From an uncultured virus (IMG/VR IMGVR_UViG_3300021335_000008) (lineage: Duplodnaviria > Heunggongvirae > Uroviricota > Caudoviricetes > Demerecviridae): a stretch of 30,786 bases of DNA. The notes beneath the pieces are model-generated. The model was given only the letters and a program-made list of their open reading frames with translations. It did not search any database and was not told the DNA's origin. A program made the position numbers and the translations under genes. Where the stretch lies: IMG/VR virus record IMGVR_UViG_3300021335_000008; one strand, 5' to 3'. Shown piece after piece: positions 1,802 through 20,088 of this stretch (position 1 is the stretch's first letter; each line of letters begins with the position of its first letter).

Positions 1802-1820
1802 TTAAGTTCCCCCGAACACG

Positions 1821-1844
1821 AAAAAGCTGGGCGCGAGACCCAGC
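1821..1844 (-). terminator. intrinsic terminator after D5
   Basis: GCTGGG-loop-CCCAGC followed by TTTTT on the minus strand. Confidence 0.65.
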
Positions 1845-1863
1845 CGCTTACACAAAAGTGTAA

Positions 1864-2583
1864 TTACTGAGACTTAGCTGCCTTGGCGGCACCATCATAG
1901 TCAGCAGCAGTTAGACCACGGCGAGTCAACATAGTTTTTACGCCGCGAGCTGTCTTGCCAATCGCTTCCGCGATAGCTTCAACAGTCATAGAAGCAACAT
2001 CAACGTCTGCCAAAGGATCTACGTTAGAAGAGCCCTTAGTGTTTTCCTGGCGAGGAATCGCCTGGATGTCGCCTGAACGAAGAAGGCTAAGAGCCTTACC
2101 ACGAACACTGTTTACAGAACGGTCAAGAGCTTCGGCGATTGCTTCAACAAAAGCACCGTCGTTCACCATAGAGATGAAAGTAGCTTCTTCAGCTTCTGTG
2201 TAAGTACGTACACTCTCTACCTTAGGAGCAGGAGCAACGTGACCAGTCAATTCCATAGACAAGATTTTGCCTTGGATAGACTTAGGTGAGAACTCACCGC
2301 CTTCGAAATGCTCAGCAATTTGAGCATATGTGTACTGACCAGAGTTGTCAGTAACGAAAGCGCGGAGAGTAGCTTCTTGAGTCTCGCTGAACGAACGTCC
2401 ACCGGCTGCAGAAGCGAGTTCTACGTCGTAACCCATCTTTCGCAGTTTGCTAGAGATAGAACGAGTAGAGGTTTCAAGCTGGTCTGCTGCTTCTGCAACA
2501 GTTGCTTGAGAGACGGGGCTTTCGCCACCGACAAAGTTTGTAAGCGCTTCAGTGCGCTCATCTGTCCACTTAGGAAGTGCCAT
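1864..2583 (-). CDS. D5: T5 D5-like DNA-binding protein
   Basis: Segments SKLRKMG, GQYTYAQIA, IQGKILSME, RGKALSLLR and RGVKTMLTRRGL..DYDGAAK recalled from T5 D5; synteny. Confidence 0.9.
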   Translation of the reverse strand: MALPKWTDERTEALTNFVGGESPVSQATVAEAADQLETSTRSISSKLRKMGYDVELASAAGGRSFSETQEATLRAFVTDNSGQYTYAQIAEHFEGGEFSPKSIQGKILSMELTGHVAPAPKVESVRTYTEAEEATFISMVNDGAFVEAIAEALDRSVNSVRGKALSLLRSGDIQAIPRQENTKGSSNVDPLADVDVASMTVEAIAEAIGKTARGVKTMLTRRGLTAADYDGAAKAAKSQ

Positions 2584-2584
2584 A

Positions 2585-3343
2585 TTAATTCTCCAAAAAA
2601 GATTTGAGATCGGTAACTATAGTTACGCCAGTATCTCTGGCTTGTCTAGTTTTTGCGGATTCATTTCCGCCCTCGTTAATGAGGTGTGTGACTTGCTTGG
2701 TTAAACTGGATTTTACATCATATCCAGCTGCGTTCAAGGCTGTAGTAGCTTCGGCTTTAGACTTGAAACTCTTCAATCTACCACTAATACATACAATACC
2801 TTTACTCGCAACAGGCAGGGAGGGCGTATCAGAAAAGTACCAACATGAAGGAAGGTGCTCTTGAAAATACGGCAACTCGTTGTCTATCCATTCAAGCAAG
2901 TTAGCTGTAGCCTTTGGGCCTAAACCGGCACGCTCACAAGTGTCTGCGTTAATTTGAGAAATATGATTAATAGTCTCAGACAGCTTCCGTGTTGCCGTGT
3001 TTCCAATCAAGGGTATGCCAAAGGCAGGCAAAAGGCGCTCAAGCGGAGCATCGAACGAATTCAATATCTCCGACATGAGCTTTGTTGTCACTTTTTCAGA
3101 ACCCAACGATGCTAAGATACTCTCCTCCGTAGAGGTGTAAATTTCGGACGGGCACGTCCAACCAAGTCTACGAATAGATGCAGGGCCGAGACCCTTGATC
3201 TTCATAGTCTTGGCAAAATGTTCCACGACCTTATACTGTTGCTCACCACAAGTGGCAGAGCGGCAGTAAAGTAAATCATTCTCCCATACCAAGGTACTGT
3301 CACAAGAAGGACAATTGGTAGGGGGTAAGATTTCGTGAAACAT
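2585..3343 (-). CDS. ligB: NAD-dependent DNA ligase subunit B (Zn finger, HhH, BRCT)
   Basis: PTNCPSC zinc finger, IKGLG and GIPLIG HhH motifs, C-terminal BRCT (CISG...VTHLI). Confidence 0.9.
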   Translation of the reverse strand: MFHEILPPTNCPSCDSTLVWENDLLYCRSATCGEQQYKVVEHFAKTMKIKGLGPASIRRLGWTCPSEIYTSTEESILASLGSEKVTTKLMSEILNSFDAPLERLLPAFGIPLIGNTATRKLSETINHISQINADTCERAGLGPKATANLLEWIDNELPYFQEHLPSCWYFSDTPSLPVASKGIVCISGRLKSFKSKAEATTALNAAGYDVKSSLTKQVTHLINEGGNESAKTRQARDTGVTIVTDLKSFLEN

Positions 3344-3369
3344 GGACTACTCCGAATTAGTGAAAAGAT

Positions 3370-3399
3370 ATTATACGACAGATTTGACCTGAATGTCAA
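3370..3399 (-). promoter_or_regulatory. sigma70-type promoter between ligA and ligB
   Basis: TTGACA-18-TATAAT; the -35 overlaps the ligA stop codon. Confidence 0.7.
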
Positions 3400-4340
3400 G
3401 AACTATTTTTCTCGATGTCCACTCGTCTCACGATTCGTGGAATGATCTCACCGCTACGTATAACTTCAACTTGGCAACCTATTTCTAGGCCAAGAGAGCG
3501 AATGTACTCAATGTTGTGTAGAGTTGCGCGGCTCACTAGCGCATCTCCCACTTCGACTGGGCGTAAGATAGCAACCGGGCTCACAACCCCTGATTTGCCT
3601 ACCTGCCACACAACATCGAGTAATTCTGTAATAACCCCATCCTTCTGCTCTTTAAGAGCGAAAGCCCCTCGGGGGTGATGAGCTGTATATCCCAGTTTGT
3701 AAAAGGCTTCATAGTTATCTACTCTAAACACCTCGCCATCTGTTGGGAAAGCGGATGCATCGAAGTGAGTGATAACCTCAAAGCCATTCCTGGCCAAATG
3801 GTTCATTGCATCAGAAAGACGCTCATACTTAGCTCCTTGAATATCGTATGCGACAAACTTGAGAGTCTGTGCGCGAGAACGAAACTCGTTATGGTCTTTC
3901 AGATTGAGCGACCCCGCTGCAAAGTTGCGAGCATTTGGGATCATATCGGGCGCTACGACCTCACCGGTAATCTGGATTTCTCCTTTGATACCGATGACAT
4001 TTGGCACTAGCTCTTCCATCTTCAACGTGATATCACGACCAATCTGGCCGTCTCCCCTAGTTAAAGCCTGTGCTAGATGGCCGTTGACATATTGCAACGA
4101 CACTGCCGCCCCATCCAGTTTCGGTGTACGCACCATAGGTGACGTACCGGACTCTATGTCATTTAGATTAAAAACCTTCTGTAGAGAGTACATACGATAC
4201 ATATGAGGAATGCCATCAGTTACCTGATAACCGACCTCTTCGTATCTGTACTTTCGTGCCAGTGCATCAAACTCTTCATCCGAAAGAATCGGATTACCGT
4301 TGTAATACATTGCCGAAGCCTTTTCCAAAAAATGATGCAT
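3396..4340 (-). CDS. ligA: NAD-dependent DNA ligase subunit A (adenylation and OB domains)
   Basis: YY..P..SDEEFD, KLDG active site, TRGDG, RNFAAGSL, ATLHN and RSGEIIPRI motifs. Confidence 0.95.
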   Translation of the reverse strand: MHHFLEKASAMYYNGNPILSDEEFDALARKYRYEEVGYQVTDGIPHMYRMYSLQKVFNLNDIESGTSPMVRTPKLDGAAVSLQYVNGHLAQALTRGDGQIGRDITLKMEELVPNVIGIKGEIQITGEVVAPDMIPNARNFAAGSLNLKDHNEFRSRAQTLKFVAYDIQGAKYERLSDAMNHLARNGFEVITHFDASAFPTDGEVFRVDNYEAFYKLGYTAHHPRGAFALKEQKDGVITELLDVVWQVGKSGVVSPVAILRPVEVGDALVSRATLHNIEYIRSLGLEIGCQVEVIRSGEIIPRIVRRVDIEKNSS

Positions 4341-4365
4341 ATAGTTCCCTCACTGAATAAAGTAT

Positions 4366-4394
4366 ATTATACAGAAAGAAGGAACAAAAGTCAA
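4366..4394 (-). promoter_or_regulatory. sigma70-type promoter
   Basis: TTGACT-17-TATAAT. Confidence 0.8.
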
Positions 4395-4397
4395 GAA

Positions 4398-4700
4398 CTA
4401 TTTATCGTATAAGTCCTTGATAAGTTCACCAAAGTGTTCTTCAATGATTTCCTTACTTTCTGCAAGTGATAAGATTTCTACTAGCCCGACGAAAAGATTT
4501 CGTGAGTTATCAAAGTCCAAAGGCATTGATATACCATCCTTAGTTGGCTTCCACTCTTCTTCGAAATCTAAGTAATACTTACGCACACTCAAATACTCGA
4601 TACCTCTAAAGGTTGAGATGGTAAGCCGGACTTGTGTCTCCTTTACCTCATCGTAATGAATAATCTTCTCATATAACTCAGGCGCTTGGTATAGTTCCAT
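4398..4700 (-). CDS. PC4/p15-like ssDNA-binding protein
   Basis: VRLTISTFRG.EYLSVRKYY...WKPTKDGISM PC4 pattern; GGAG SD before the ATG at 4700; T5 synteny. Confidence 0.8.
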   Translation of the reverse strand: MELYQAPELYEKIIHYDEVKETQVRLTISTFRGIEYLSVRKYYLDFEEEWKPTKDGISMPLDFDNSRNLFVGLVEILSLAESKEIIEEHFGELIKDLYDK

Positions 4701-4701
4701 C

Positions 4702-4968
4702 TTAATCTCCGTTCTTGAGAACAGAGGCAAGAGGTACTACACTCGTGACGTTCTGAGGTTTGAGTAGACGAAAGGAGTCGGTGTCCCAACAAAAAAGCAA
4801 AAGAGTCTGTTCAGATTCCTTCGCTCTGTTTTTCTTTTGTTGAATGTAAGGCGTGCTAAAATCCAACGTACACACATTGTATTTCAACTTATTACTGTTT
4901 TCACTACGATAAGTGATTACAGCATCACCGTACTCATCGACGAGCCGTGCTAGTTCTTCTTTTTTCAC
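4702..4968 (-). CDS. conserved T5-like hypothetical protein
   Basis: GTG start with AGGAG SD; YNVCTLDF and FCWDTDSFR segments; position between D3 and the PC4-like gene as in T5. Confidence 0.7.
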   Translation of the reverse strand: MKKEELARLVDEYGDAVITYRSENSNKLKYNVCTLDFSTPYIQQKKNRAKESEQTLLLFCWDTDSFRLLKPQNVTSVVPLASVLKNGD

Positions 4969-5069
4969 AGGTGCTCCTAATGAAGCGGGTTGGCAGAATT
5001 TTCTTCCGTGCCGACTTGCTTAGGATGTGAAGAAGAGGGACTTACACCTACGGACGCCCTCAAAAAGAA

Positions 5070-5426
5070 TTAGCTGTTTACTGCTGCGATAACTCCAGCA
5101 AAGTACATTGCTGCTTTACCTGTCAACTTGCTGACGATTTCTTCATCAACATCTTGACCTGCATCAGTGAGTGCTGCTGTAAGTGCTTCGATAGCGGCTG
5201 CTTTAGATACACGGCCACCGCCTGTGCTACCGCTTGAAGCTGCCTTGGTTGCTGGTGCTTTCTTAACATATACACCTGCTTTAGTCAGAACCATTCGAAC
5301 ACCGTTTGGTGATTCTTCGAACTCGTCTGCAATCTCTGCGACGATCTCCATGCTGTTTTCTGGAGTAGGGTTTTGCGCTTCATATGCAGCAATAACCTCT
5401 GCTTTTTTCTCGTCTGTCCACGCCAT
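5070..5426 (-). CDS. D3: T5 D3-like DNA-binding protein
   Basis: SMEIVAEIA, SPNGVRMVLTKAGVYVKK and KLTGKAA recalled from T5 D3; start at MAWTDE (5426), with an in-frame extension to 5513 possible. Confidence 0.85.
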   Translation of the reverse strand: MAWTDEKKAEVIAAYEAQNPTPENSMEIVAEIADEFEESPNGVRMVLTKAGVYVKKAPATKAASSGSTGGGRVSKAAAIEALTAALTDAGQDVDEEIVSKLTGKAAMYFAGVIAAVNS

Positions 5427-5502
5427 TTTACGTTTCCTTCTGTTAGTTGTTAAGGGTGCTCCTGGACAAGTGCCAGTAGCTTGTATTTGTGCTTGATAAA
5501 AT

Positions 5503-5997
5503 CTATCGCCCATCTCGAGCGTCCCACTTTAGTTTGTCACCATCAGTTTCAAACTTAATCATTCTCATTGGGTCATCCTCAATAAAATGAATACTTTTAA
5601 ATGCAATTTCTAGCATTTGAAAATATACTTGTATTGCTTTGTCTCGAAACTCTTTGTCGCTCCATAAGTGAAAACAATTCCAGTACTCTTTATCAAATCT
5701 ACAAACGCGTACTTGCTGTTGAAGAATAGGATGCATACCTGCAAACTTTTCACATATATCCACACAAGCACGCAATCGTTGACTACCACATATAGGATAC
5801 CAATTAGGCATTACAAGTACAGGAGCTTCGATACCATTTTTTAGTAAGTCTTTTACTAGCTCTTCTTGAACAGGAATATTATGAAAGTTTTCTGCAAAAG
5901 TTTGTTGCTCAATCAACCAGCCTACTGATTTTGTATACCAAGTAGTTGGTGGAAAAGCAATAAGTTCTGCGGTTTCTTTTTTGATTCTATTCGTCAT
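5503..5997 (-). CDS. putative ParB/Srx N-terminal-domain protein
   Basis: ELVKDLLKNGIEAPVLV....PICGSQRLRA resembles ParB boxes I/II. Confidence 0.5.
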   Translation of the reverse strand: MTNRIKKETAELIAFPPTTWYTKSVGWLIEQQTFAENFHNIPVQEELVKDLLKNGIEAPVLVMPNWYPICGSQRLRACVDICEKFAGMHPILQQQVRVCRFDKEYWNCFHLWSDKEFRDKAIQVYFQMLEIAFKSIHFIEDDPMRMIKFETDGDKLKWDARDGR

Positions 5998-6007
5998 TTA
6001 AGATACT

Positions 6008-6036
6008 ATTATAGTTGATATAGCAAAAGAAGTCAA
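6008..6036 (-). promoter_or_regulatory. sigma70-type promoter
   Basis: TTGACT-17-TATAAT. Confidence 0.8.
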
Positions 6037-6045
6037 GAAGTATTT

Positions 6046-6741
6046 TTAGATACGTGATAAGTCAACTCCGTACTTTTCGAGGTGGGATAGCTTCCCAAGA
6101 TCATACGCGAGAGAGTAAGCAGAGTAGCCACCTGTTTCCACGTTAGCCCATTTTTCTGTATCGTCTCTAATCTCTTCCATAACATATATCGCATAGCATT
6201 TACTTCCATACTTGCTTTCATAGTTAACGTCTATGAATCCTTCTCGCTCAGCTTGGTAATCGACGGAGAGTTCGTAGTCGACTCGGGCTGGCTTTTGGTA
6301 GACTGCTGACCAGACGATTTCTCCGGGCGAGAACGAGTCAGCAATGCAAGACTCAGGGAGTACAGCGACTCCGCTTTCTCTCTCAACCTTTGGGACTCCG
6401 ACTCGCTCAATGAGAGATCTAACGAATCCACTCGATCTAAATAATCCTGACGCGATCTCAGAGATGGAGTCTCCGGAAAGGTATCGTTCAACTGCTTCAC
6501 GAATTTCTTCATTTGATGCTCCTCGTCCTCGATTCTGTTTTTTACGTAATTCGCGATACTCGATTTTATCTTGGTAATCATCTATGATTCTCTGTAGGCG
6601 CGTAGTATTGTATGCTATATTCAGCATATCGCACGCAACCTTCTTGGAAATAGGTTGGTTTCCAGTCAACAAATCTATAACTTTCGATATATTGCTTTCG
6701 CTCAGGTTCTCGTGGTCTTTCCGTTTGATCTTGCGTACCAA
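6046..6741 (-). CDS. D2: T5 D2-like protein
   Basis: KKVACDML, YLSGDSISEIA, GEIVW and HLEKYGVD recalled from T5 D2; TTG start with GGAG SD. Confidence 0.85.
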   Translation of the reverse strand: MVRKIKRKDHENLSESNISKVIDLLTGNQPISKKVACDMLNIAYNTTRLQRIIDDYQDKIEYRELRKKQNRGRGASNEEIREAVERYLSGDSISEIASGLFRSSGFVRSLIERVGVPKVERESGVAVLPESCIADSFSPGEIVWSAVYQKPARVDYELSVDYQAEREGFIDVNYESKYGSKCYAIYVMEEIRDDTEKWANVETGGYSAYSLAYDLGKLSHLEKYGVDLSRI

Positions 6742-6791
6742 AGATTTTCTCCCAATTCTCGTAAAATTTTCGTGTGTTTTCTACTCGCGAT

Positions 6792-7094
6792 CTACTGCCC
6801 TTGCTCACGTGGATCATCCCCTATCATCATCCGTAGATACCAAATGGCTTTTTCTACGTCTTGCTTTTTATTCTGCTTGTTCTTGCAGCGCCAGATGTAT
6901 TTGAACGCATTGAGATGGCAATACTCCTCAAACCCTTCGTCTGAAGTGATTTGTCTCATTGCGTCGATGCACTCGACCCCGTCGCGATTATAATGTGCAG
7001 GACTATTCACTGGATCATGTACCAGTGTAGGGCTTCTGTAGCTAATCCCTTTTCCGTCTTTTGCTTCTGTCCAGCCTTCTGATAAATTACTCAA
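6792..7094 (-). CDS. DUF3310 (T7 gp1.7-like) protein
   Basis: [15 protein letters not shown]...NAFKYIWR..K....DVEKAIWYL signature. Confidence 0.85.
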
Positions 7095-8293
7095 AACTGT
7101 TCTGCCTCCGTAGAATCTGCCATAGCCGCCGTACTACTGCCGAGGGCTGTTGTGATTGCGTCAAAGTATCCAACACCTACTTCCTGCTGGTGTCGAGTTG
7201 ATGTGTACCCAAACTGTTCTGCTGCAAACTCTGCTTCCTGTAGCTGAGAGTATGCAAACATTCCGCGATCCTTGTACTGACGTGCAAAGTTAAATACGCC
7301 ATAGTTTGTACTATGAAACCCTGCAAGTGTAATGAACTGAAACTTAAATCCCATCTTTCCGAGTTCGTACTGAAAGTCTTGTAGCTCCTGATCTCCAGGA
7401 ATAGACTTTCTCCAGTTAAAAGAAGGAGAGCAGTTGTATGCTAACATTGCGTCAGGACAAGATCCTTTTACCGCGTCAGCAAACCGTCGAGCCTCTTTGA
7501 GGCAAGGCTTGCTTGTTTCGCACCACACGAGATCTGCGTATTCTGCGTATGCAGCCCCACGTTCACATCCCATTTCAAGTCCGCCTTCGATCTGCCAAAA
7601 TCCGTCAGCAGTACGATCTCCGGACATCCACTTGTAGTCTGCGTGGTCGTAGTCGCTAGAGAGGAGTCTGGCTGACTCGGCATCAGTCCGAGCGACGACC
7701 AGAGTATCAACCCCAGCAACGTCAGCAGCAAGACGAGCGGCGTTAAGATTGCGGATAGCGTCACTAAGAGGTATAAGGACTTTTCCTCCAAGGTGACCGC
7801 ATTTTTTGGCGGACGCAAGCTGGTCTTCAAAATGGACCCCAGCTGCCCCAGCTTCGATGAGGTTTCTAGCCAATTCATAACTGTTTAGTACTCCTCCAAA
7901 TCCTGCTTCTGCGTCTGCAATAATGGGTGCAAACTCAAAGCCAGTACCACTTTCTGCATACTGGATTTGGTCAGCACGGCGGAAAGCGTTATTAATGTTA
8001 CGCACAACATTGGGTACAGAATCCACACTATAAAGAGACTGGTCAGGGTATACCTCATTATTTGAGTTAGCTGCTGCAGCCACTTGCCAGCCTGAACAAT
8101 AAATTGCTTTAAGACCTGCTTTGACGTGCTGTACAGCCTGCTGACCATTGTACGCTCCAAATGTGTGAATGTAAGGGTTTTCTGCAAGAAGCATACGCAT
8201 TTTGTTTGCCATTCTTCTTGCAAGTGTATGTTCAATGTCCATTGAGCCTTGAAGTTTTCTTACATCTTCACGGGTATAATTTCGTTTTTTCAC
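7091..8293 (-). CDS. aceA: isocitrate lyase
   Basis: [21 protein letters not shown], catalytic [29 protein letters not shown] and HQQEVG motifs. Confidence 0.97.
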
Positions 8294-8889
8294 TTTGCTG
8301 TGATCCTCTGTTCGTAGTCAGCAAGAGACTCATCCCACCAAGGGGGAGTTGGTCGATGAGACCAACTGGCGAAAGTAGCCTTGTCAAGATGATAATAGTC
8401 ACGGTAAGACTGTATTGGATCATCGTAGTTTTTGAGTATCTCAGGCATCGCAAGTCCAAACGTGGTGAACCCCACTCGTTCAATATTGATTGGGTCAGGT
8501 AATTTGTTGATGACCTGCCAGAATGACTTGTGTTCTTTGCCGTAGCGATACCGAAATTCCTCTGCGAGTGCATGAGCATAGCACCATGTCCACTCGTAAT
8601 TGTCTAGTGATGATCGAGTCCATATCGTGCAGGGATGATTGTACATCATGCCGAGATAAGGTGTTAAGTTACGCTCTTCTGGTTTCAGAGGCTTCTCAAC
8701 TTTTTTGTACTCATTGAGAACCGCAGCTTCGTCTTTTTCAAGAGCTCTGGGTACGAAACCTAGCAAGCGATCTACCCAAATGGCAGTACACAAAAGCTGT
8801 GCGGCTTCGAGTATCATTTTATTGACGTGCTTGTCTACATGGTACTCGGCACACTTGTCTAGGTTTTTGTCAAGGTAAAATAAATTCAT
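8290..8889 (-). CDS. pyrimidine-dimer DNA glycosylase / DenV-like protein
   Basis: MNLFYLD...[20 protein letters not shown] and YRDYY..K family motifs. Confidence 0.75.
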
Positions 8890-8895
8890 GAAAGT

Positions 8896-8924
8896 ATTAT
8901 ACTCGCTATGAGATTAAATGTCAA
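8896..8924 (-). promoter_or_regulatory. sigma70 promoter, probably giving a leaderless mRNA
   Basis: TTGACA-17-TATAAT, ATG only 6 nt downstream. Confidence 0.8.
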
Positions 8925-9496
8925 GAATTTTCTCGTAGCTTGTTGAGTATAAATGCCGGAGCCGTAAACATATAAGGATCTTTGTCGTGATTATCCTCGC
9001 GGCCTTCTTCGATGAACCAGTCAACAATGTGTCCATTGTCAACAACTGCTGCATATCTCCAAGATCGTCGACCAAACCCCAGATTGTCTTTGTCCACGAT
9101 CATTTGCATTTCTTCTGTAAATTTACCACTACCGTCAGGAATTACTTGTACGTGCTCGAGGTTTTGGTCGTGTGCCCAAGCATTACATACAAACGCATCG
9201 TTTACTGTAATACAGTAGATTGCGTCGATTCCTAACTCAAAAAACTCTGGTGCAAGTTTTTCAAAGTCAGGTAGCTGGTAGGTGGAACAGGTTGGCGTGA
9301 AAGCGCCTGGCAGGGAGAAGATAAGTACTCGCTCTCCTGCAAAAAGATCCCATGTAGTTACGGGCAACCACTCAAAAGTTCCTTCATTGAGAACTCGAGT
9401 GTGAAACGTAGTTGAGGGAATCATGTCTGGTAGTGAACGCCAGTAGCCTTTTTCTTCGTACTGATCGCGTTCGTGTTCTGTGCAATAAATAGCCAT
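8921..9496 (-). CDS. peroxiredoxin (Prx5/redoxin family)
   Basis: PGAFTPTCS peroxidatic motif, VNDAFV, GFGRRSWRY. Confidence 0.95.
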   Translation of the reverse strand: MAIYCTEHERDQYEEKGYWRSLPDMIPSTTFHTRVLNEGTFEWLPVTTWDLFAGERVLIFSLPGAFTPTCSTYQLPDFEKLAPEFFELGIDAIYCITVNDAFVCNAWAHDQNLEHVQVIPDGSGKFTEEMQMIVDKDNLGFGRRSWRYAAVVDNGHIVDWFIEEGREDNHDKDPYMFTAPAFILNKLRENS

Positions 9497-10066
9497 TTAT
9501 GCCTCGCTGTAAGTTAAGTTTAAATTTGCGTGATGTTGTTCATCGCGTCGAACGTACTTAATCATATCAGACAGCTTTGCTTCTGGAAGTAGATCATAGT
9601 AGTCAATCGCGATTTGTGGTGCAGGTACGTCTTGTATACGGCCTGCGTCAATTTCCCCAAGGTAATCGGTGTAGCTTTTTACAGCTTCTTCTTCAAAGTA
9701 ATGTATCATAAGATGTGCAGTTTTAGGTGCAATGAGATACAATACTAAATAGTAGTGCCAGAATATTAATTGTGCCAGTACGATGAGACCCCGCTCCAGC
9801 TTTGTAGGTTGCACTACTTCTATGAAAAACATGAGATGCTTACGTTCGTTTTCAGCTTCTGCAAGCATCTCATGAATTTTACTGCCTTGTCCTTTCTTTA
9901 GCCCGCGAAGGCTTGAAAGGTGTGTGAGCATTCCAGCAACCATCCCAGGCACGCCTGCAACAGTTTCTAGAACTATAGCTCTATGACCATACCGCTTACG
10001 AAAGAACATATCGGCAGTAAACCGAAAGAACTTTGTCATAGATTTTGCTACAATTTTATTAGACAT
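9497..10066 (-). CDS. aox: alternative oxidase (di-iron carboxylate)
   Basis: LETVAGVPGMV, EAENERKHL, EEEAV.SY and RRDE..H iron-binding motifs. Confidence 0.92.
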   Translation of the reverse strand: MSNKIVAKSMTKFFRFTADMFFRKRYGHRAIVLETVAGVPGMVAGMLTHLSSLRGLKKGQGSKIHEMLAEAENERKHLMFFIEVVQPTKLERGLIVLAQLIFWHYYLVLYLIAPKTAHLMIHYFEEEAVKSYTDYLGEIDAGRIQDVPAPQIAIDYYDLLPEAKLSDMIKYVRRDEQHHANLNLTYSEA

Positions 10067-10505
10067 TCTCAAGTCTTGTCATCAGTCGTTCGGCTCGATT
10101 CCCTACTTGTTTGTGCCATAGAGAGTCTCGACCTTGGATAGCAGCTTCTTTCCAATCTCCATGCTCAAGAGCACGGTGCATCATTTTAAATTTACTCAGG
10201 CGTGGTCGTCCTAGATTGAACATCATGTTTACAAGAATTTCTTGAACTTCTCCAGGAAATCCTTCCCAGACATCGGCTTTGTACAGTGCTACACACTCAC
10301 TTACAGCCACATCGAGATCTCGGTCAAAGCACTCTTGTACGCGCTCAACTGAGACGGGTTCTCCGACTTCATATCCGTGCTCTGGATCTGACTCAAGCAC
10401 GAGATGTCCCACTCCGAAGGTTTTGTACCCAAGATGATCCAAATAAATTTCATAGACGACTCCTTCATCAATTTTTAACTGCTCATAGACTGATTCTCTG
10501 TTCAT
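10059..10505 (-). CDS. T4-type lysozyme (GH24) endolysin
   Basis: E-x8-D-x5-T triad (DEGVVYEIYLDHLGYKTFGVGH), NMMFNLG, S.W.KQV..RA.RL. Confidence 0.9.
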   Translation of the reverse strand: MNRESVYEQLKIDEGVVYEIYLDHLGYKTFGVGHLVLESDPEHGYEVGEPVSVERVQECFDRDLDVAVSECVALYKADVWEGFPGEVQEILVNMMFNLGRPRLSKFKMMHRALEHGDWKEAAIQGRDSLWHKQVGNRAERLMTRLENV

Positions 10506-10759
10506 TCTTTATCCTTTGTTGGTTCGTTTGACGCTCTTACGAAACGCCACTCGTCCCGAGCTTTGTCGTACTCATGTATCAGATACGCCCCTCCTAGACC
10601 TAACATCAAAGCACCTTTGTGCTCATCAAAGCTCCAGTTGTATCCTGTTACGACTACTTCTTCTATGTTTTTTCTTACTGGGCGGGGGACTTCCGGTTCT
10701 TCGGAAGCAAGCGCTGACCCCGTTGCGCTTAGTAATAAAAGTACTACTATTTGTTTCAT
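10502..10759 (-). CDS. small exported protein with a TonB-box-like motif
   Basis: Signal peptide ending ALA, then IEEVVVTG; AGGA SD. Confidence 0.7.
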   Translation of the reverse strand: MKQIVVLLLLSATGSALASEEPEVPRPVRKNIEEVVVTGYNWSFDEHKGALMLGLGGAYLIHEYDKARDEWRFVRASNEPTKDKE

Positions 10760-10824
10760 TATTTCCTATGTTGCCCCTTGTGAGGGTCTGCTTTGTGGAG
10801 CAACTTGTGATAAAGGTGTTACTC

Positions 10825-10977
10825 CTAACCTTCGTCATCTACCTCCAATACTCCTTGGTCGATTAGATACTGTACTGTACCCTCGATGCCTTCTCGTCTT
10901 CCAAGATGAAAAGCAGTGCCAGCAGCACCGGCCATACAAACTCCAAACACAACAAGTGCAGTGGTAAAATCAAGCAT
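10825..10977 (-). CDS. small membrane protein (50 aa, absent from the ORF track)
   Basis: GAGGAG SD; MLDFTTALVVFGVCMAGAAG...; first gene after the promoter at 11011-11039. Confidence 0.7.
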   Translation of the reverse strand: MLDFTTALVVFGVCMAGAAGTAFHLGRREGIEGTVQYLIDQGVLEVDDEG

Positions 10978-11010
10978 ACGAATCTCCTCGGTATTTTTGT
11001 AGATGCGTAT

Positions 11011-11039
11011 ATTATACTCAAAAACGGAACGGAAGTCAA
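11011..11039 (-). promoter_or_regulatory. sigma70 promoter (leftward member of a divergent pair)
   Basis: TTGACT-17-TATAAT. Confidence 0.8.
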
Positions 11040-11104
11040 GAAATTTTTTCGGTTATGTCACTTATAACTGCGACTTATATCTTGCTACCAAAGAAAAATA
11101 CTTC

Positions 11105-11133
11105 TTGACTTTCAATGAAAGATCCCCTATAAT
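11105..11133 (+). promoter_or_regulatory. sigma70 promoter (rightward member of a divergent pair)
   Basis: TTGACT-17-TATAAT, ATG 7 nt downstream. Confidence 0.8.
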
Positions 11134-11140
11134 ATACAAC

Positions 11141-11326
11141 ATGAAAGAATATCAGAAGAAACCTTGGACAATGAATGAGCGTAACTTGCTCCGCAATCAT
11201 TATTATCTTAAAAATGAAGAAGAGCTGCTCGAGATGTTTCCAGAACGTACTCTGAATAGTATTCGTAAACAAGTGAGCTACTTACGCAAACGTGGGTGGT
11301 GTTTTATTCGCAAAGGAGCAATTTAA
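11141..11326 (+). CDS. small Myb/SANT-like HTH protein
   Basis: WT..E..LL..HY......L..MFP.RT..SIR.....L pattern. Confidence 0.6.
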   Translation: MKEYQKKPWTMNERNLLRNHYYLKNEEELLEMFPERTLNSIRKQVSYLRKRGWCFIRKGAI

Positions 11327-11562
11327 TGGCAAAGAAGAAAAGAATGGGTAAGTCTAACTACACAAGCCAAGGTCTGCGTCGAAGCAGTACAGGCTGTCGT
11401 ATGCTTACTCCAATGCAACGTCTACGCAACCAGCAAGAAGCATGGTTGAAAGGCAAGCGCGTAATGCTAGTCATTGACGCTGCTGGTAACAAGGCAGAAG
11501 CTCAAGCTGTATGGGGTTTACCTCCCATGCTTCGTAAAAAGGAAAGTAATGCCGAAAGTTAA
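11326..11562 (+). CDS. basic hypothetical protein
   Basis: AGGAG SD; TAATG coupling with the upstream gene. Confidence 0.65.
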   Translation: MAKKKRMGKSNYTSQGLRRSSTGCRMLTPMQRLRNQQEAWLKGKRVMLVIDAAGNKAEAQAVWGLPPMLRKKESNAES

Positions 11563-11740
11563 GGTAAGAAACAATAACGTAGAGAGCGCACTGCGTGTGT
11601 TTAAAAAGAAATGCGCTGACATCGTGTGGGAGTATAGACAGCGTGAGCACTATGTTCCCAAATCAGAACAACGGCGGTTAGCTAAAAAAGCCGCCATCGC
11701 TAGAGGTAAGAGGAAGAAAAATGATACCAAGCAATTTTGA
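11549..11740 (+). CDS. rpsU: ribosomal protein bS21 homologue
   Basis: MPKVKVR.NNVESALRVFKKKC.....EYRQREHY.PKSEQRR.AKKAA.AR matches bS21. Confidence 0.9.
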   Translation: MPKVKVRNNNVESALRVFKKKCADIVWEYRQREHYVPKSEQRRLAKKAAIARGKRKKNDTKQF

Positions 11741-12104
11741 ACTTGCAGGCGATTTCATGGAAGCCTTTGGTCAGGAAGTACAAGTTCACCCGACTTGGCC
11801 TGACTTTAGTACTCGTGAGCTACGCCTTGAGTTGATTCGAGAAGAATATGAAGAACTGGAAGAAGCTATTGAAAATCGTGACCTCGTGGAGGTTGCCGAC
11901 GCTCTTACAGATTTGTTATACGTTATCTATGGGGCTGGTCATGCATTTGGCATTGACCTTGATGAATGTTATCTTGAAGTTCACCGGAGTAATATGAGTA
12001 AGCTCGGTGAAGATGGCAGACCTATCAAAAGAGAAGACGGCAAAGTTATCAAGGGGCCAAACTTTTTTGAACCAAACTTAAAAGATATTCTAGTAGAAGC
12101 CTAA
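11721..12104 (+). CDS. MazG-like / PRA-PH NTP pyrophosphohydrolase
   Basis: LIREEYEEL, EVADALTDLLYV, VHRSNMSK, DGKVIKGPNF motifs. Confidence 0.85.
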   Translation: MIPSNFELAGDFMEAFGQEVQVHPTWPDFSTRELRLELIREEYEELEEAIENRDLVEVADALTDLLYVIYGAGHAFGIDLDECYLEVHRSNMSKLGEDGRPIKREDGKVIKGPNFFEPNLKDILVEA

Positions 12105-12105
12105 T

Positions 12106-12246
12106 ATGGATATAGGTCTACTCGGATTGCTCGCAATCTTTATGTGTCCAATGGTATTTGGTGGAATCACCATGTACTATTCACACGAAGCTATACACAA
12201 ACAAACCGTCGAGAGGTGGAAAAAGCAATGTACTCAGATAAAGTAA
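12106..12246 (+). CDS. small membrane protein (46 aa)
   Basis: MDIGLLGLLAIFMCPMVFGG... fills the gap before iscU. Confidence 0.5.
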   Translation: MDIGLLGLLAIFMCPMVFGGITMYYSHEAIHKQTVERWKKQCTQIK

Positions 12247-12602
12247 TTGATCACTATGAAAATCCTCGCAATGTTGGAAAGATGAATAGAGAGGATAAGG
12301 ATGTTGGTACAGGTATGGTGGGAGCACCTGCCTGTGGTGATGTCATGCAACTCCAGATAAGAGTGGAGGATGGAATCATTGAAGACGCGAAGTTTAAAAC
12401 TTACGGCTGTGGGAGTGCTATTGCTTCTAGTTCTTTACTCACCGAGTGGGTCAAAGGAAAAAGTCTTGAAGAAGCCGGGCGAATCAGTAATACAGACATC
12501 GCACGAGAACTTACACTACCTCCAGTAAAAATACATTGTAGTGTACTGGCAGAAGATGCTATAAAGGCAGCAATTGAAGATTATAATAAAAAGGGAGCAT
12601 GA
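12228..12602 (+). CDS. iscU: Fe-S cluster scaffold IscU
   Basis: YSDKVIDHYENPRNVG, GAPACGD, TYGCGSA and LPPVKIHC motifs. Confidence 0.97.
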   Translation: MYSDKVIDHYENPRNVGKMNREDKDVGTGMVGAPACGDVMQLQIRVEDGIIEDAKFKTYGCGSAIASSSLLTEWVKGKSLEEAGRISNTDIARELTLPPVKIHCSVLAEDAIKAAIEDYNKKGA

Positions 12603-14519: not shown

Positions 14520-14709
14520 GTTGTGACCCCGCTACTGCTTTTCGCCAAGCAATGGTGAATTGCTCTTCCGCTTTACTACTTGCAAAATGTATAGTATTTG
14601 TGTAGGGATCTAATCTACAGGGAACGTCTTCTAATTCACAGATCGCAGCAGCACGTCCAAACAACGGGGTCGATGCAAATTGTGTACTTGGCCCGTAGTA
14701 TTCCATCAC
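14512..14709 (-). CDS. hypothetical protein
   Basis: GGAGG SD; coupled to the upstream gene. Confidence 0.6.
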   Translation of the reverse strand: MMEYYGPSTQFASTPLFGRAAAICELEDVPCRLDPYTNTIHFASSKAEEQFTIAWRKAVAGSQRD

Positions 14710-15050
14710 AGACCTCCTGGGTAGTTCTCAAATTGCTCTAACCCCGCCACTGCTTTTTCCAAGTTTCGTAATGCTGTTTTGGGACTTTTCTCCAAGCCAG
14801 CCAAAGACGCAATTTCAAGTCCAAGACTTTCAGCGATATTATTAACGATTTCCACTTTCGTGATAGGACTTTCACCAGTCTTTGATACATACACTTCTCT
14901 CCTGTATACGCCTTCTCTGCTGAGCTTGCCGATTATTGATTTTGTACTACGTCCTAGCTCTTCTGCTAGTTTATCTACTGTTTCTCTTGTAGGTTCTAAC
15001 ATATACGCTGCGACCATTGCATCGGTCTGCTGTTCAGTATAGTTCGACAT
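14706..15050 (-). CDS. T5 A2-like DNA-binding protein, paralogue 1
   Basis: MSNYT...EPTRETVDKLA...KSIIGKLSREGVY...TK.E.V...LAGLEK; GAGG SD. Confidence 0.7.
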   Translation of the reverse strand: MSNYTEQQTDAMVAAYMLEPTRETVDKLAEELGRSTKSIIGKLSREGVYRREVYVSKTGESPITKVEIVNNIAESLGLEIASLAGLEKSPKTALRNLEKAVAGLEQFENYPGGL

Positions 15051-15222
15051 TCTTGTGCTTCCTCTTTCTGTTGTATTTAGTTTTGTCTTGGTGTACGGAT
15101 GGACGATTGAAATTGTACTTCGCCACGGGGTTGGCAGCGAGTCGCTCACACTGCCCATTACAGTACCATACATCTAGTACTGCATTAAACTCTTTCCCGC
15201 ACTTTCTACACTTCCGTTTCAT
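15034..15222 (-). CDS. small Cys-motif basic protein
   Basis: CRKC...CNGQC; C-terminal H.DKTKYNRKRKHK. Confidence 0.55.
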   Translation of the reverse strand: MKRKCRKCGKEFNAVLDVWYCNGQCERLAANPVAKYNFNRPSVHQDKTKYNRKRKHKNVELY

Positions 15223-16209: not shown

Positions 16210-16385
16210 ATCAACCCCTCATCTTGCATATCGAATAATATACGTTGTACTTGAAGTTCATCAAATGCCCACTCATATTCTAACTCTTTGCGAATGCCAC
16301 CAACAAACACCATGTTCTGGCCTGTAGCAAGAGTAGAAGTGTGACGGTCAACGACCGCCACCATTTCGTGTCGTGATAACAACAT
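16203..16385 (-). CDS. hypothetical protein
   Basis: TAATG coupling with the A2-like gene. Confidence 0.6.
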   Translation of the reverse strand: MLLSRHEMVAVVDRHTSTLATGQNMVFVGGIRKELEYEWAFDELQVQRILFDMQDEGLIW

Positions 16386-16708
16386 TAGCCCACCAACGCG
16401 TCGATCATGAACTGAAGGTCAACCTTAGTCATTTTGTTGAGCGAAGGTAGCTCGCGACCGATAGCATTTTGTACCTGTGCTACCAGCTCAGCCTTCATTA
16501 CGACAGGCTCGCCACGCTTGGTTACGCGCTCAACTTTCTGGTATACACCGAGTGCAGAGAGCTTAGCAATGACAGAACGCTCAGTCTTGTTGAGGCGTGC
16601 AGCCAGGGCGTTGACAGTCTCACGAGTTGGCTCGAGAGTGTACTCGTCAGTGATGATTGTGATGTCCGCGTCAGAATAGTTCGCGCTTGATTTTGCAGTT
16701 ACGTCCAT
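16385..16708 (-). CDS. T5 A2-like DNA-binding protein, paralogue 2
   Basis: NYS...EPTRETVNALA...RSVIAKLSALGVYQK...KAELV...LPSLNK; GGGAG SD. Confidence 0.7.
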   Translation of the reverse strand: MDVTAKSSANYSDADITIITDEYTLEPTRETVNALAARLNKTERSVIAKLSALGVYQKVERVTKRGEPVVMKAELVAQVQNAIGRELPSLNKMTKVDLQFMIDALVG

Positions 16709-16754
16709 AATATTTTCTCCCAAAAATTTGTTTGTGTTCCGATTCAATATAGTA

Positions 16755-16783
16755 ATTATACTACTGAGGGGCAGGAATGTCAA
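16755..16783 (-). promoter_or_regulatory. sigma70 promoter
   Basis: TTGACA-17-TATAAT. Confidence 0.8.
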
Positions 16784-16794
16784 GAAGTTTTTTA

Positions 16795-17127
16795 TCATTC
16801 GGCCCAAAAGATTTCGTCTTCGTCACCAGCATCTGCCGCCATTTCCATGACAAAGTCTACTTCTGTGTCGCTATCGCAGATAACGAACTCTTCAGAGCGC
16901 AGGTCAAAAGCAACCTGGTACACGTTCTTCGCGTACGGAGCAACTTCGAACCAGAACTCGTCACCGTATACTTCCTCAAACAGCTCATCCAGCTCGTGAT
17001 CTGGATATGTGCCCTCTTCCAACAGCCTTTCACGGGTGTCAGCAATAAAGTTGTGCCACTCCAGTGCATTATACATCTTGCACTTTTGGTCAGCGATGTC
17101 GAAGGTTACAGCAATAATTTTTTCCAT
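16795..17127 (-). CDS. highly acidic hypothetical protein
   Basis: GAGGAG SD; D/E-rich. Confidence 0.7.
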   Translation of the reverse strand: MEKIIAVTFDIADQKCKMYNALEWHNFIADTRERLLEEGTYPDHELDELFEEVYGDEFWFEVAPYAKNVYQVAFDLRSEEFVICDSDTEVDFVMEMAADAGDEDEIFWAE

Positions 17128-17154
17128 AGCAAGGTCTCCTCAGTCAATGTAAAC

Positions 17155-17183
17155 ATTATACTACCACGGGCAACTCAAGTCAA
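17155..17183 (-). promoter_or_regulatory. sigma70 promoter
   Basis: TTGACT-17-TATAAT. Confidence 0.8.
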
Positions 17184-17327
17184 GAACTATTTTCCCGAAT
17201 TAGTCATAAAGCCAACGCACCCGAATTCCGGGGGGCCGGTCACGAACCGTCGATGTCAAGTAAAATTTGCACCAAATAGCAAAAATTATCGTAAATTTAC
17301 TACGGTTTGCCCCCAAGATCTGCCATA

Positions 17328-17356
17328 ATTATACTCGACCCCGCTGAGACTATCAA
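17328..17356 (-). promoter_or_regulatory. sigma70 promoter
   Basis: TTGATA-17-TATAAT. Confidence 0.6.
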
Positions 17357-17390
17357 GTTGATTTTTTGGTACAATTGCCCTAAATTGTAC

Positions 17391-17659
17391 TTGACATCGT
17401 CGGTGTACTACTGTATAATCGGCGCCGCCAACCGAGACCCGGCTTTTTGTGAATTTTTACCAATTGTGCAAATTTCCCTTGACATCGAAGGTTTACTACT
17501 GTATAATTGGCGCGCCGGCGCCAAAAGACCTGTTGGTTTCAAAAAATTTTCGTCCATTGCCGCAAAAAAGACTTGACAATCGTCGCACTACTACTTATAA
17601 TGGCGCGAGGTACCCTAAAGAAAATCGTCGTCGTACTACTACTGGCGCGGCGGCGCCAA
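17391..17659 (+). repeat. array of three consensus sigma70 promoter repeats plus one degenerate copy
   Basis: TTGACA-17-TATAAT at 17391, 17479 and 17573; shared TCG...TACTACT spacer and GGCGC after the -10. Confidence 0.8.
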
Positions 17660-17687
17660 AATCTGGATGTCAACCCAGATTTTGACG

Positions 17688-17703
17688 TGTTCCACGTGGA
17701 ACA
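17688..17703. promoter_or_regulatory. parS-like 16-bp palindrome
   Basis: TGTTCCACGTGGAACA, a perfect palindrome matching the chromosomal parS consensus. Confidence 0.7.
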
Positions 17704-17705
17704 GG

Positions 17706-17822
17706 TTAAGGTTGCAAGGCTTCGAGAAAAATCCAAAGGTTGTTGACCGTATCTCTCTCGAGGCCTTTCCGCATGAGGTCGGGCCGAATTTCAATTATGC
17801 GATCAATAATTTTAGCTTTCAT
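17706..17822 (-). CDS. small hypothetical protein (38 aa)
   Basis: MKAKIIDRIIEIRPDL... starts right after the upstream stop. Confidence 0.5.
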   Translation of the reverse strand: MKAKIIDRIIEIRPDLMRKGLERDTVNNLWIFLEALQP

Positions 17823-17823
17823 A

Positions 17824-18456
17824 TCACGCCCCCAACTCTAAGGGGGCGCGGACGGGTAGCGTCCAACCGGAAGGGCCGCGGAAATTCATTCCGCGCATTT
17901 GCTCCCAGCCGATCGCCATATTCTCGCGGCGTTGGCAGTTGAGGAATTTGCCGTAGAGCGAGCGGATGTTCGCAAAGTAAAATTCCGTTTTGCCAGCGGG
18001 AGCGGTCGAGCCGTTCTTGCGGGCTTGCTCCATGATCCAGTTTAAGGCGTGAATGTCGGTGCCTTGATTGCGACCGTGGAAGTATTGCTCTGCCGCGAGC
18101 GCTTCGTTCACGTTGTGAACCTCCATGCAGTAGAGGCGAGCGACCAGAGTGCCAGCCGGAAGGCCGAGCATCTTCTCCCAAGCTCGGACGCATTCACGAG
18201 TGCGATGCACCGCGCCGATCTGGTAATAATTGCCATTCTTGCGAGCGGCTTTCGCGTAGCCGATTTTCGCGAGGATCACGTCGTCTACCAGAACGCTCGA
18301 GAGTTCGGGGAACAAATCGAGAAGCTGAGACGTTGAGATCTTCCAGAAGTAGAGGTGGCCTTGCACCTCGTTTGAGCCTTCTGCGCGATATTCAGCAGGG
18401 CGGAGACCGTTGCCGGTCATGACTTTCCATTGAAGGGTTGGTAGTTGCATTTTCAT
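17824..18456 (-). CDS. putative GIY-YIG (T5orf172-like) nuclease
   Basis: GHLYF...KIGYA...R...AE..FH...TEFY pattern. Confidence 0.5.
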   Translation of the reverse strand: MKMQLPTLQWKVMTGNGLRPAEYRAEGSNEVQGHLYFWKISTSQLLDLFPELSSVLVDDVILAKIGYAKAARKNGNYYQIGAVHRTRECVRAWEKMLGLPAGTLVARLYCMEVHNVNEALAAEQYFHGRNQGTDIHALNWIMEQARKNGSTAPAGKTEFYFANIRSLYGKFLNCQRRENMAIGWEQMRGMNFRGPSGWTLPVRAPLELGA

Positions 18457-18458
18457 AA

Positions 18459-18935
18459 TTAAGCTCCTAGGCTTTCGTTGATTTCAAGTGAATTGTGGCA
18501 TACAAGGCCGTTGTTTGTCAAGCATTCAATGACATTTTTATTGTCATCAAACATGATTGCAGTCTTGCAGAATCGACGCCAGCTCATGCCGTTGTCAGCG
18601 GCGTAGCGCTTGAGGCCGCGCAGTTTGAATAAATCATCGGGCGTTGTGTCGCCTTCCTTGCGAGAGATGATGGTCTCAGCAAACAGGCCGCGAGAGCCGA
18701 AATAAAAGTAGTCAGCCGGACCCATAACGCGAGCAGTGCAAACAATAATTTTTGCGTTTGGCTTGCGTTGAATCTTGCGCCATTCGTGAGCGAGAGGCAG
18801 AAGCGTATCTCTCTCAATAAATTTGGCGGTTGAATGTTCGCGCCAGTGCGCGAGGTTGATTGAACCATCGGGGCTCGTTAAAGCGCGATGGGATGAATCG
18901 ACGACCGTATGGTCAAGGTCAAAAATAAAGTGCAT
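18459..18935 (-). CDS. dmp: deoxynucleoside-5'-monophosphatase (HAD superfamily), T5 Dmp-like
   Basis: FDLDHTVVDSSHR, DTLLPL, CTARVM..DY.Y and FDD motifs match T5 Dmp. Confidence 0.85.
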   Translation of the reverse strand: MHFIFDLDHTVVDSSHRALTSPDGSINLAHWREHSTAKFIERDTLLPLAHEWRKIQRKPNAKIIVCTARVMGPADYFYFGSRGLFAETIISRKEGDTTPDDLFKLRGLKRYAADNGMSWRRFCKTAIMFDDNKNVIECLTNNGLVCHNSLEINESLGA

Positions 18936-19116
18936 AGATATATCCTCCAATGCCGACAATGTTAAGTAAGATCAGATTATAGCATTTATTAGCCGTGGCT
19001 TGCAATGTTAATAATACCAATCCGAGAATCGCAATCATCTTACCGGCGTCGGTGTCGATGATGAAGGGCGCTAACATCATGCAAAGCGCCCCAGCCCAAG
19101 CGCAGAAGCCGATCAT
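18919..19116 (-). CDS. small multi-TM membrane protein
   Basis: Hydrophobic 65-aa ORF; ATGA coupling. Confidence 0.65.
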   Translation of the reverse strand: MIGFCAWAGALCMMLAPFIIDTDAGKMIAILGLVLLTLQATANKCYNLILLNIVGIGGYIYALYF

Positions 19117-19409
19117 CCGATCGACTCCAGAACGCTTGAAAGTTCCGCTTTGGTGAGGTCACCTTCACGGGTTGGCAAAGCCAGAGCCTTGCGAATAGCG
19201 GAGAGATATTCCGCTTTCGTTGGGGTGTCGTCCTTGACACGCTTGACAGGCGAGAGCTTGACGTATTCAACGCCAATGCTTTGAGCCTTAGAGATGACCG
19301 AACGATAGGTCACATTGCCAAAATCGGCGGCCAATTCCTTGGCCTTGGCTAGGTTAAGAGGGGCCGCGGCAGTGATGCGAGCGACCATTTCAGGGGTATA
19401 GTTAGACAT
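19113..19409 (-). CDS. T5 A2-like protein, paralogue 3
   Basis: MSNYT...KELA...RSVISKA..GV.Y.K...TKAE; AGGAG SD; near dmp. Confidence 0.65.
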   Translation of the reverse strand: MSNYTPEMVARITAAAPLNLAKAKELAADFGNVTYRSVISKAQSIGVEYVKLSPVKRVKDDTPTKAEYLSAIRKALALPTREGDLTKAELSSVLESIG

Positions 19410-19442
19410 AAGTAAATCTCCTATTGGTTAGTTGATGTGAGT

Positions 19443-19471
19443 ATTCTCTCACAGATTTTAGAATTTGTCAA
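19443..19471 (-). promoter_or_regulatory. pre-early promoter
   Basis: TTGACA-17-GAGAAT; leader CATCAACTAA...AGGAG. Confidence 0.55.
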
Positions 19472-19649
19472 TGGTAAAATTCACATTTTTGCGATTTTTT
19501 TCACGTCGCGCTTGACGCTTTGCGCGACGCTGTTGGCGACTGCGAGCACGATGGTTTTCGTAGGTGTCCATTGATTCCGCGACCACGATGCCGCCCACGA
19601 CGCCCGAGATAAAGGTTATTAAAACAAGCATTAAGATAGTAATTTCCAT
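19458..19649 (-). CDS. membrane-anchored basic protein
   Basis: AAGGAG SD; N-terminal TM helix and Arg-rich tail. Confidence 0.65.
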   Translation of the reverse strand: MEITILMLVLITFISGVVGGIVVAESMDTYENHRARSRQQRRAKRQARREKNRKNVNFTIDKF

Positions 19650-19674
19650 ATCAATCTCCTTAGTTGATGCAAGC

Positions 19675-19704
19675 AGTATCGCATGGCAATGGGGTGCCTG
19701 TCAA
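19675..19704 (-). promoter_or_regulatory. pre-early promoter
   Basis: TTGACA-18-GATACT with extended TG; same CATCAACTAA leader. Confidence 0.5.
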
Positions 19705-19836
19705 TACCCTAACGCAAAATATTTTTTGGTAATATGTCACAGCATAGGGGGGTTAAAAGACCTTGACAAACCGCGCTCGCGCGCGCACCCCCACACGTAC
19801 AACTTTGGGTATTTTCATACCTCGGAAAAAGAGCAC

Positions 19837-19865
19837 TTGACAAAGTAGCTCAATTGAAATATACT
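19837..19865 (+). promoter_or_regulatory. promoter for the RBP module
   Basis: TTGACA-17-TATACT. Confidence 0.75.
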
Positions 19866-19887
19866 TCAAACAATCGGAGAAAATTAT

Positions 19888-20088
19888 ATGAGTATTACAC
19901 TTAATTGGACAGCAACTGTAACTCGGCAAACTGCTTTTGAAAATATTGAAGAGCAGTATAAAACTGGCACGTGGTTAAAAGAGGGGGTGGAACAGGGAGT
20001 AGTCGAAGTTCTTCTAGACGAAGAAGGCAGTCAAACTCTTTCTGACGCAGAAATTATAGAAGGATTATCTAAGCCATGGCTGACGTAA
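19888..20088 (+). CDS. hypothetical protein
   Basis: GGAG SD; first gene of the module. Confidence 0.65.
   Translation: MSITLNWTATVTRQTAFENIEEQYKTGTWLKEGVEQGVVEVLLDEEGSQTLSDAEIIEGLSKPWLT

Follow-up and report, generated by a model that had tools for sequence, protein, structure and literature searches.

The plasmid-prophages P1 and N15 are temperate, encode their own ParA and ParB and carry a private centromere that is bound by a ParB-type protein. Five parS sites are present in phage phi29, where they are utilized with the host protein Spo0J to get the phage genome into the spore (PMC2731898). On bacterial chromosomes parS follows the consensus TGTTNCACGTGNAACA, printed with positions 5 and 12 as N in a review of ParB (PMC7022226). 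In Pseudomonas aeruginosa ParB bound the sites parS2 and parS3 in vivo by ChIP-seq and its spreading exceeded 20 kb; one parS was enough, and a parS with two mismatches was not recognised (PMC5098823). The Par system of Vibrio cholerae mobilises parS1 sites and anchors them at the poles (PMC4091711). An engineered lambda-parS recruited CFP-ParB within ten minutes of injection (10.1101/2025.11.03.685801). For coliphage T5, the leftmost 7.9% of the genome is reported to enter first, with dmp, A1 and A2 at the left end of the terminal repeat; the same preprint, by Davison, describes conserved DnaA boxes in the terminal-repeat 'iss' and proposes that binding of host DnaA stops injection (10.1101/866236).

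The locus described here lies in the window, a 30.8 kb part of an uncultured phage genome with T5-family gene content. Its features are as follows.

17391-17419, plus strand: promoter P1, a perfect sigma-70 consensus (12/12) with a 17-nt spacer, directed at parS.
17479-17507, plus strand: promoter P2, a perfect sigma-70 consensus (12/12) with a 17-nt spacer.
17573-17601, plus strand: promoter P3, a perfect sigma-70 consensus (12/12) with a 17-nt spacer.
17620-17661: conserved block of TCG and ACT triplet runs, followed by GGCGC-N4-GCGCC and an A-run.
17654-17687: inverted repeat with arms at 17654-17666 and 17675-17687, each of 13 nt and 92% complementary, with an 8-nt loop.
17688-17703: parS TGTTCCACGTGGAACA, a perfect palindromic chromosomal-type 16-mer, assigned by sequence match.
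17706-17822, minus strand: 38-aa ORF without homology support, its stop 2 nt from parS.
17824-18456, minus strand: gene for a 210-aa protein, a variable cassette between dmp and parS.
18459-18959, minus strand: dmp-like HAD phosphatase (deoxynucleoside-5'-monophosphatase of T5-like phages), phrog_415.
18919-19116 and 19113-19409, minus strand: two small upstream operon genes, conserved in relatives.
19443-19471, minus strand: promoter-like site ahead of the dmp operon, 10/12, TG-extended.

The 16-mer fitted TGTTNCACGTGNAACA exactly and was the sole match in the window, even with up to three mismatches allowed. An earlier note on this DNA had called an exact chromosomal-type parS at this position, and the call was correct: the site is letter-for-letter that of P. 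aeruginosa parS2 and parS3. It has the 16-mer in common with the chromosomal parS/ParB-CTP systems (P. aeruginosa parS2/parS3, V. cholerae parS1), as well as the range of variants that these allow. Chromosomal parS sits by oriC or parAB, whereas this copy lies off oriC and off any parAB operon, on a phage without ParA or ParB. The site would be expected to work like parS but differs from a chromosomal centromere in being on a phage.

The virulent Bacillus phages phi29 and Nf are likewise lytic, are reported to lack partition proteins of their own and carry host-type parS for the host's ParB homologue (PMC2731898). phi29 has five sites, a Gram-positive spore-forming host and spore trapping; here a single site is found at a fixed place past the dmp operon. 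In contrast to phi29 with its several sites, each of five whole records had one site (≤2 mismatches); Vibrio phage phi 3 has two per terminal repeat. The marine T5-like phages (seawater, salt marsh) have no spore to enter. P1 and N15 likewise carry a phage centromere for a ParB-type protein, whereas in the present case neither gene is found and the site has the chromosomal consensus. Engineered lambda-parS is an artificial construct with a supplied ParB; the present site is a natural phage site. The DnaA boxes of the T5 iss are likewise host-protein sites in non-coding pre-early/terminal-repeat DNA, with a proposed holding role (10.1101/866236), but they concern DnaA and lie at the far end of the repeat, whereas parS lies beside dmp.

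A literature search of titles and listings returned no paper on parS occurring naturally in T5-like phages. The word 'phage' has no occurrence in the ParB review PMC7022226, nor have parS, ParB or Vibrio in 10.1101/866236.

T5-type genes were identified in the window by domain and PHROG searches: a split NAD-dependent DNA ligase, a D5-like regulator, a DnaB-like helicase and the dmp-type HAD phosphatase. Window proteins were 30-47% identical to those of cultured Demerecviridae, and no DNA-level relative was found in the cultured-phage collection. Near-identical DNA was found in metagenome runs of 17 studies covering seawater, marine, salt-marsh, aquatic and biofilm samples. No tRNA genes were found in the window and no Rfam families within 16500-20000. 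A metabolic cluster unusual in a T5-like phage was present at 7091-12602 (isocitrate lyase, alternative oxidase, peroxiredoxin, MazG-like, NifU/IscU). The isocitrate lyase (ICL, 400 aa) was ∼60% identical to bacterial enzymes with matches spread over many phyla, so that no host could be assigned from it. The ICL, the peroxiredoxin and the alternative oxidase (AOX) had no counterpart in G001, a collinear relative of 101 kb rated 100% complete.

The phage appears to be T5-like and lytic-looking, the earlier note having called it lytic: the complete relative G001 has no integrase, ParB_N or ParA-like match. Integrase (PF00589) and ParA-like AAA_31 (PF13614) gave 0 matches in both G001 and Vibrio phage phi 3, and ParB_N (PF02195) was not found above the family cut-off in five records (G001, two partial relatives and two vibriophages). 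As in phi29, integrase, ParA and ParB are thus missing from G001 and phi 3, the window being only a 30.8 kb part. JSF10 gave one weak ParB_N match (E 0.008). Among the 60 window ORFs scanned, ParB_N and ParA-like domains were not found. A 164-aa ORF at 5503-5997 was considered as a ParB-like nuclease and rejected: its PHROG match had E 1e-4, no Pfam match was obtained at E 1, nothing matched it in the phage collection and it had no homologue in parS-bearing G001. The relatives for which hosts are known infect Gram-negative bacteria.

The dmp operon comprises four or five tightly packed minus-strand genes running from 19409 to 17706. The dmp homologue was matched by 893 phage records, all below 60% identity and with 29-33% among the matches listed; the matching phage genes were annotated dmp and located in terminal repeats. 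The two small operon genes were 59% and 64% identical to those of L029 and 69% and 78% identical to those of G001. The 210-aa protein had no Pfam or PHROG match and no relatives in the phage collection or IMG/VR, and was 31% identical over 143 aa to a protein in G001. The earlier placement of parS in non-coding DNA past the end of the dmp operon was confirmed, the site being separated by 2 nt from the stop of the last ORF and by 120 nt from the last supported minus-strand gene (17824-18456). No supported plus-strand gene was found downstream of P1-P3, which point towards the 3' end of the dmp operon. parS thus falls within the untranslated 3' tail of this operon, at the meeting point of two opposed transcription units. 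Beyond parS, reverse-oriented consensus promoters were also present in L123, L124, L125 and L008. Across the window, 7 perfect TTGACA-N17-TATAAT sites were observed against 0.03 expected.

An inverted repeat next to parS had been reported with 10-bp arms; the repeat is real and those arms were too short. It is bounded by an A-run and a T-run and gave fold z scores of -3.3 and -3.6. It is probably a terminator that acts in both directions and separates the convergent promoters from the dmp operon; a simple terminator scan did not call the hairpin at 17654-17687. The conserved block that overlaps it was the best-conserved non-coding element of the clade and was retained where parS was lost (L127 and 10 others). 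Its spacer motif recurs inside promoters P1-P3, and a TTGAC word was found 9-17 nt ahead of it in many relatives. The block may act as an operator, a packaging signal or an end signal.

Chance was estimated from base composition (GC ∼0.43), giving ∼6e-6 exact copies of the 16-mer expected per window and ∼1.5 across the survey of ∼250,000 windows. A lone occurrence therefore proves nothing, and conservation decides. At least 121 IMG/VR stretches contained the exact 16-mer. Among the 121 matches listed, two (L008 and L029) were diverged syntenic relatives of the window. As only 2 of these contigs were related, other phage groups or host fragments must carry the word too; contigs L019 and L076 held two copies each.

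IMG/VR loci were anchored on the dmp protein (n = 14). The exact 16-mer was found 0.9-1.4 kb past dmp in 7 and was absent in 4, and 3 loci ended <800 nt past dmp and were too short to judge. Metagenome dmp loci were retained in 80 cases from 242 confirmed, and an exact member of the consensus family lay downstream of dmp in 24 of the 80. Of these 24 sites, 19 had the same form as in the window, 3 had the T/A form and 2 were hybrids. When only metagenome loci with ≥1500 nt after dmp were counted, just 11/24 had an exact site.

The pooled set of 96 loci (94 loci, L008 and 6 kb of the window; 398.5 kb) contained 39 parS sites with ≤1 mismatch, in 23 flank clusters and all downstream of dmp. None was found upstream of or within dmp. 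By arithmetic, ∼0.1 sites were expected by chance in these 398.5 kb against the 39 observed. The IMG/VR and metagenome loci overlap in origin, so raw counts are non-independent, and independence is more safely judged from the 23 flank clusters. One site each (≤2 mismatches) was found in 5/5 whole records, including the 101-kb complete relative. In 43 loci anchored on the conserved block, parS lay 36-170 nt before the block in 32 and was missing in 11. The expectation in the earlier note that close relatives share the site at the syntenic position thus held for 32/43 and failed for the other 11, and from this loss parS is dispensable. Relatives without parS include some of the closest by dmp identity (65-72%; L248, L249, L251, L254, L255), and L127 has no site although it closely resembles parS-bearing L129 in the adjoining sequence.

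Four lineages (the window; L123/L124; the L125 group; L008) were compared across the site. Their 40-nt flanks were 12-38% identical, which is the random level, and the 16-mer was 16/16; the lineages also differed in how far the site lies from the block, and the hairpin next to it had a completely different sequence in each. As the flanks are unshared, the 16-mer is not part of a common host fragment. Over the 39 sites, position 5 was C in 35 and T in 4, and position 12 was G in 32 and A in 7. Of the 6 mismatches in all, 5 fell on the outermost positions (1 and 16) and 1 fell on the central CG. The core was invariant in 38/39 sites, a figure partly built in by the ≤1-mismatch search, which does not build in where the mismatches fall. 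This profile of variation looks like the tolerance expected of ParB and unlike that of an RNA stem. In relatives parS is followed by a hairpin of different sequence, with z ≤-2 in 16/23 representatives; between L125 and L130 the hairpin showed one compensatory change and one G-U change. The comparisons show purifying selection on a host-type parS at a fixed place in a phage clade without ParB or integrase.

Sites were also located in cultured T5-like phages. Vibrio phage phi 3 (V. cholerae, Demerecviridae), of a second T5-like lineage, has an annotated left terminal repeat at 1-7769, within which two consensus parS sites lie among pre-early genes; both are repeated in the right repeat. One comes immediately behind the stop codon of the gene that precedes dmp and the other lies between A2 and A1. 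One of the two is identical to parS1 as listed among the oligonucleotides for work with V. cholerae ParB1 (10.1101/2024.06.25.600654). In JSF10, which is 96% identical to phi 3, both sites carry the same central C-to-T change (CG to TG). The altered sites are at 88000-88015 and 90148-90163 of KY883654, and the marine relative L278 has the mirror change at the central CG. These changes may reflect selected loss of ParB binding, or mutational bias at CG.

No parS above the control level was found in pVp-1, VPT02 and KIT04 (V. parahaemolyticus), in VCPH (V. harveyi), or in one Aeromonas and one Pectobacterium phage. Both V. parahaemolyticus and V. harveyi are expected to have ParB. parS was absent, as expected, from the single tested phage with an Enterobacterales host. 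Judging from these genomes, the trait recurs among T5-like phages and is not universal.

The 16-mer was searched for in 401 sampled genomes of the class of a Wenzhouxiangella MAG and was found in 146, with 1-4 copies each, against 0 for a reversed-word control.

A 19-bp palindrome of the AATGAGAAT-N-ATTCTCATT type, which we take to resemble a Fur box, was present in 53/96 dmp loci. Utilizing a motif derived from the same loci, 85 hits were obtained against 1-7 in 20 shuffles. Copies were located at 1528-1546 in L008, 5252-5270 in L264, 3861-3879 in L286, 4785-4803 in L320 and 1270-1360 in L274, and also in L251, L254, L255 and L285. The palindrome often lies 6-15 nt from parS, or replaces parS in relatives without it. 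Some copies are found ahead of the dmp operon; no good copy is present in the window. This distribution suggests that host regulators dock in the parS/palindrome region.

By the homology of dmp with that of T5-like phages, the dmp region of the window may be first-entering DNA. Pfam and PHROG searches gave no A1 or A2 matches among the dmp operon genes, and the gene order around dmp differs from that of T5, phi 3 and VCPH. In runs X1 and X2, two of the 24 contig-level runs that contain the window, unitigs over ∼17622-19816 had ∼2x the flanking depth (62 and 57 against 28-40; 9.4 against 3.7-6.9). This contig-derived doubling could mark a short terminal repeat that contains the dmp operon and is edged by parS, or could stem from a further strain present alongside.

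We consider it likely, from its identity to bound chromosomal sites, its positional conservation, its ParB-like pattern of variation and the lack of ParB, ParA-like and integrase matches in G001, that the 16-mer is a selected binding site for the host's chromosomal ParB. That degree of confidence applies to a selected host-ParB binding site and does not extend to positioning or retention of the genome. We infer binding by the host's ParB, its spreading and every downstream use. In the proposed mechanism, parS would be kept by selection in the transcribed, untranslated tail of a pre-early-type dmp operon, before the bidirectional terminator. On entry, host ParB dimers would recognise the palindrome and bind CTP. 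ParB would then close as clamps and spread across the neighbouring DNA, and the phage chromosome would thereby gain a centromere-like ParB complex.

Among the uses of such a complex, positioning or retention is favoured first and transcriptional damping, by ParB, of the very strong promoters and the pre-early operon beside it second. By analogy with phi29 and Spo0J, the infecting genome might be positioned or retained by the partition or pole-anchoring apparatus of the host, a use that we put forward tentatively. ParB loading could be hindered by the transcription of the DNA around parS, at which three consensus promoters point.

A further reading, which we regard as doubtful, is that in T5-like phages whose hosts have ParABS the host ParB-CTP clamp forms part of the entry programme and tethers or holds the leading DNA during the injection pause. 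In that programme the first-transferred parS, together with the Fur-box-like sites, would tether the DNA at the partition or pole apparatus, and parS would play the part proposed for the DnaA boxes in coliphage T5. The hosts of coliphage T5 are not known to have ParB. Loss of the site or mutation at its centre (JSF10, L278, 11/43) would then mark a change of host or strategy.

ParB might instead bind in a regulatory role, silencing the pre-early operon or blocking read-through from the three convergent promoters. Consensus promoters face parS, which in every case lies between dmp and the hairpin, and the closeness of the Fur-box-like palindrome in relatives suggests a regulatory hub. Par proteins of V. 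cholerae are transcription regulators by the title of one paper (PMC4010829), and in P. aeruginosa ParB bound at the intergenic parS3 and parS4 represses adjacent genes (PMC7022226). However, the hairpin/terminator already splits the two transcription units, and relatives without parS retain the promoters and the conserved block. A regulatory role is unlikely, although it is the strongest of the rival accounts.

Under a decoy role, which the earlier note had put forward alongside genome protection and help with two-step injection, replicating phage DNA would titrate ParB off the host origin and disturb segregation or ParB-dependent processes. Replicating phage copies would outnumber the 1-4 chromosomal parS copies, but each genome has a single site, and a phage with dmp probably destroys the host DNA anyway, judging from T5 biology. 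The fixed placement at the end of the pre-early operon would also be unnecessary for titration, and we find this role improbable.

We give equally little credence to the palindrome as the operator of a phage-encoded DNA-binding protein, with a coincidental resemblance to parS. Small HTH or D5-like proteins are encoded nearby (14706-15173 and 16385-16807), and the 164-aa protein has its weak PHROG match to a ParB-like nuclease. Support from the latter did not stand, and no ParB_N match over the cut-off was found in the five records. An operator of this kind also sits poorly with the exact identity to the host consensus, with variants that remain within the ParB consensus family and with the occurrence in phi 3 of the variant used by its own host.

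The 16-mer might also be an RNA or DNA hairpin of the operon's terminator without a protein reader. It would be cotranscribed with the operon, forms a 6-bp stem in every fold prediction and always adjoins the terminator-like hairpin. Compensatory change, seen in the neighbouring hairpin, would be expected of a structural element, whereas the core of the 16-mer was invariant in 38/39 sites, which makes this account very improbable. That the 16-mer arose by chance, or is a neutral remnant of host DNA, is hardly credible: ∼1.5 exact copies are expected over the survey and at least 121 IMG/VR stretches contain the word, but 39 sites share one relative position across 23 flank contexts and none lies elsewhere in the 398.5 kb.

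If host ParB loads at the selected site, a large, widespread marine lytic clade and cultured vibriophages would exploit the chromosome-segregation clamp, and use of host ParB has so far been documented just for phi29 and spore entrapment. The site would give a handle on how T5-type phages manage their first-injected DNA, and on whether 'lytic' marine phages persist and get inherited in slow-growing cells. It would also be a natural version of the laboratory parS/ParB tagging used for following phage DNA. As cultured relatives carry sites, the idea is directly testable.

The DNA next to parS also differed between strains. The 210-aa gene was replaced in related strains, with other genes at its place in L029, L008 and L127. 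In runs X3 and X4, 17676-18456 was almost uncovered, and one joint jumped from 17662 to 18540. In a strain variant 17527-17685 was exchanged for 32 nt, the sequence rejoining that of the window 2 nt before parS.
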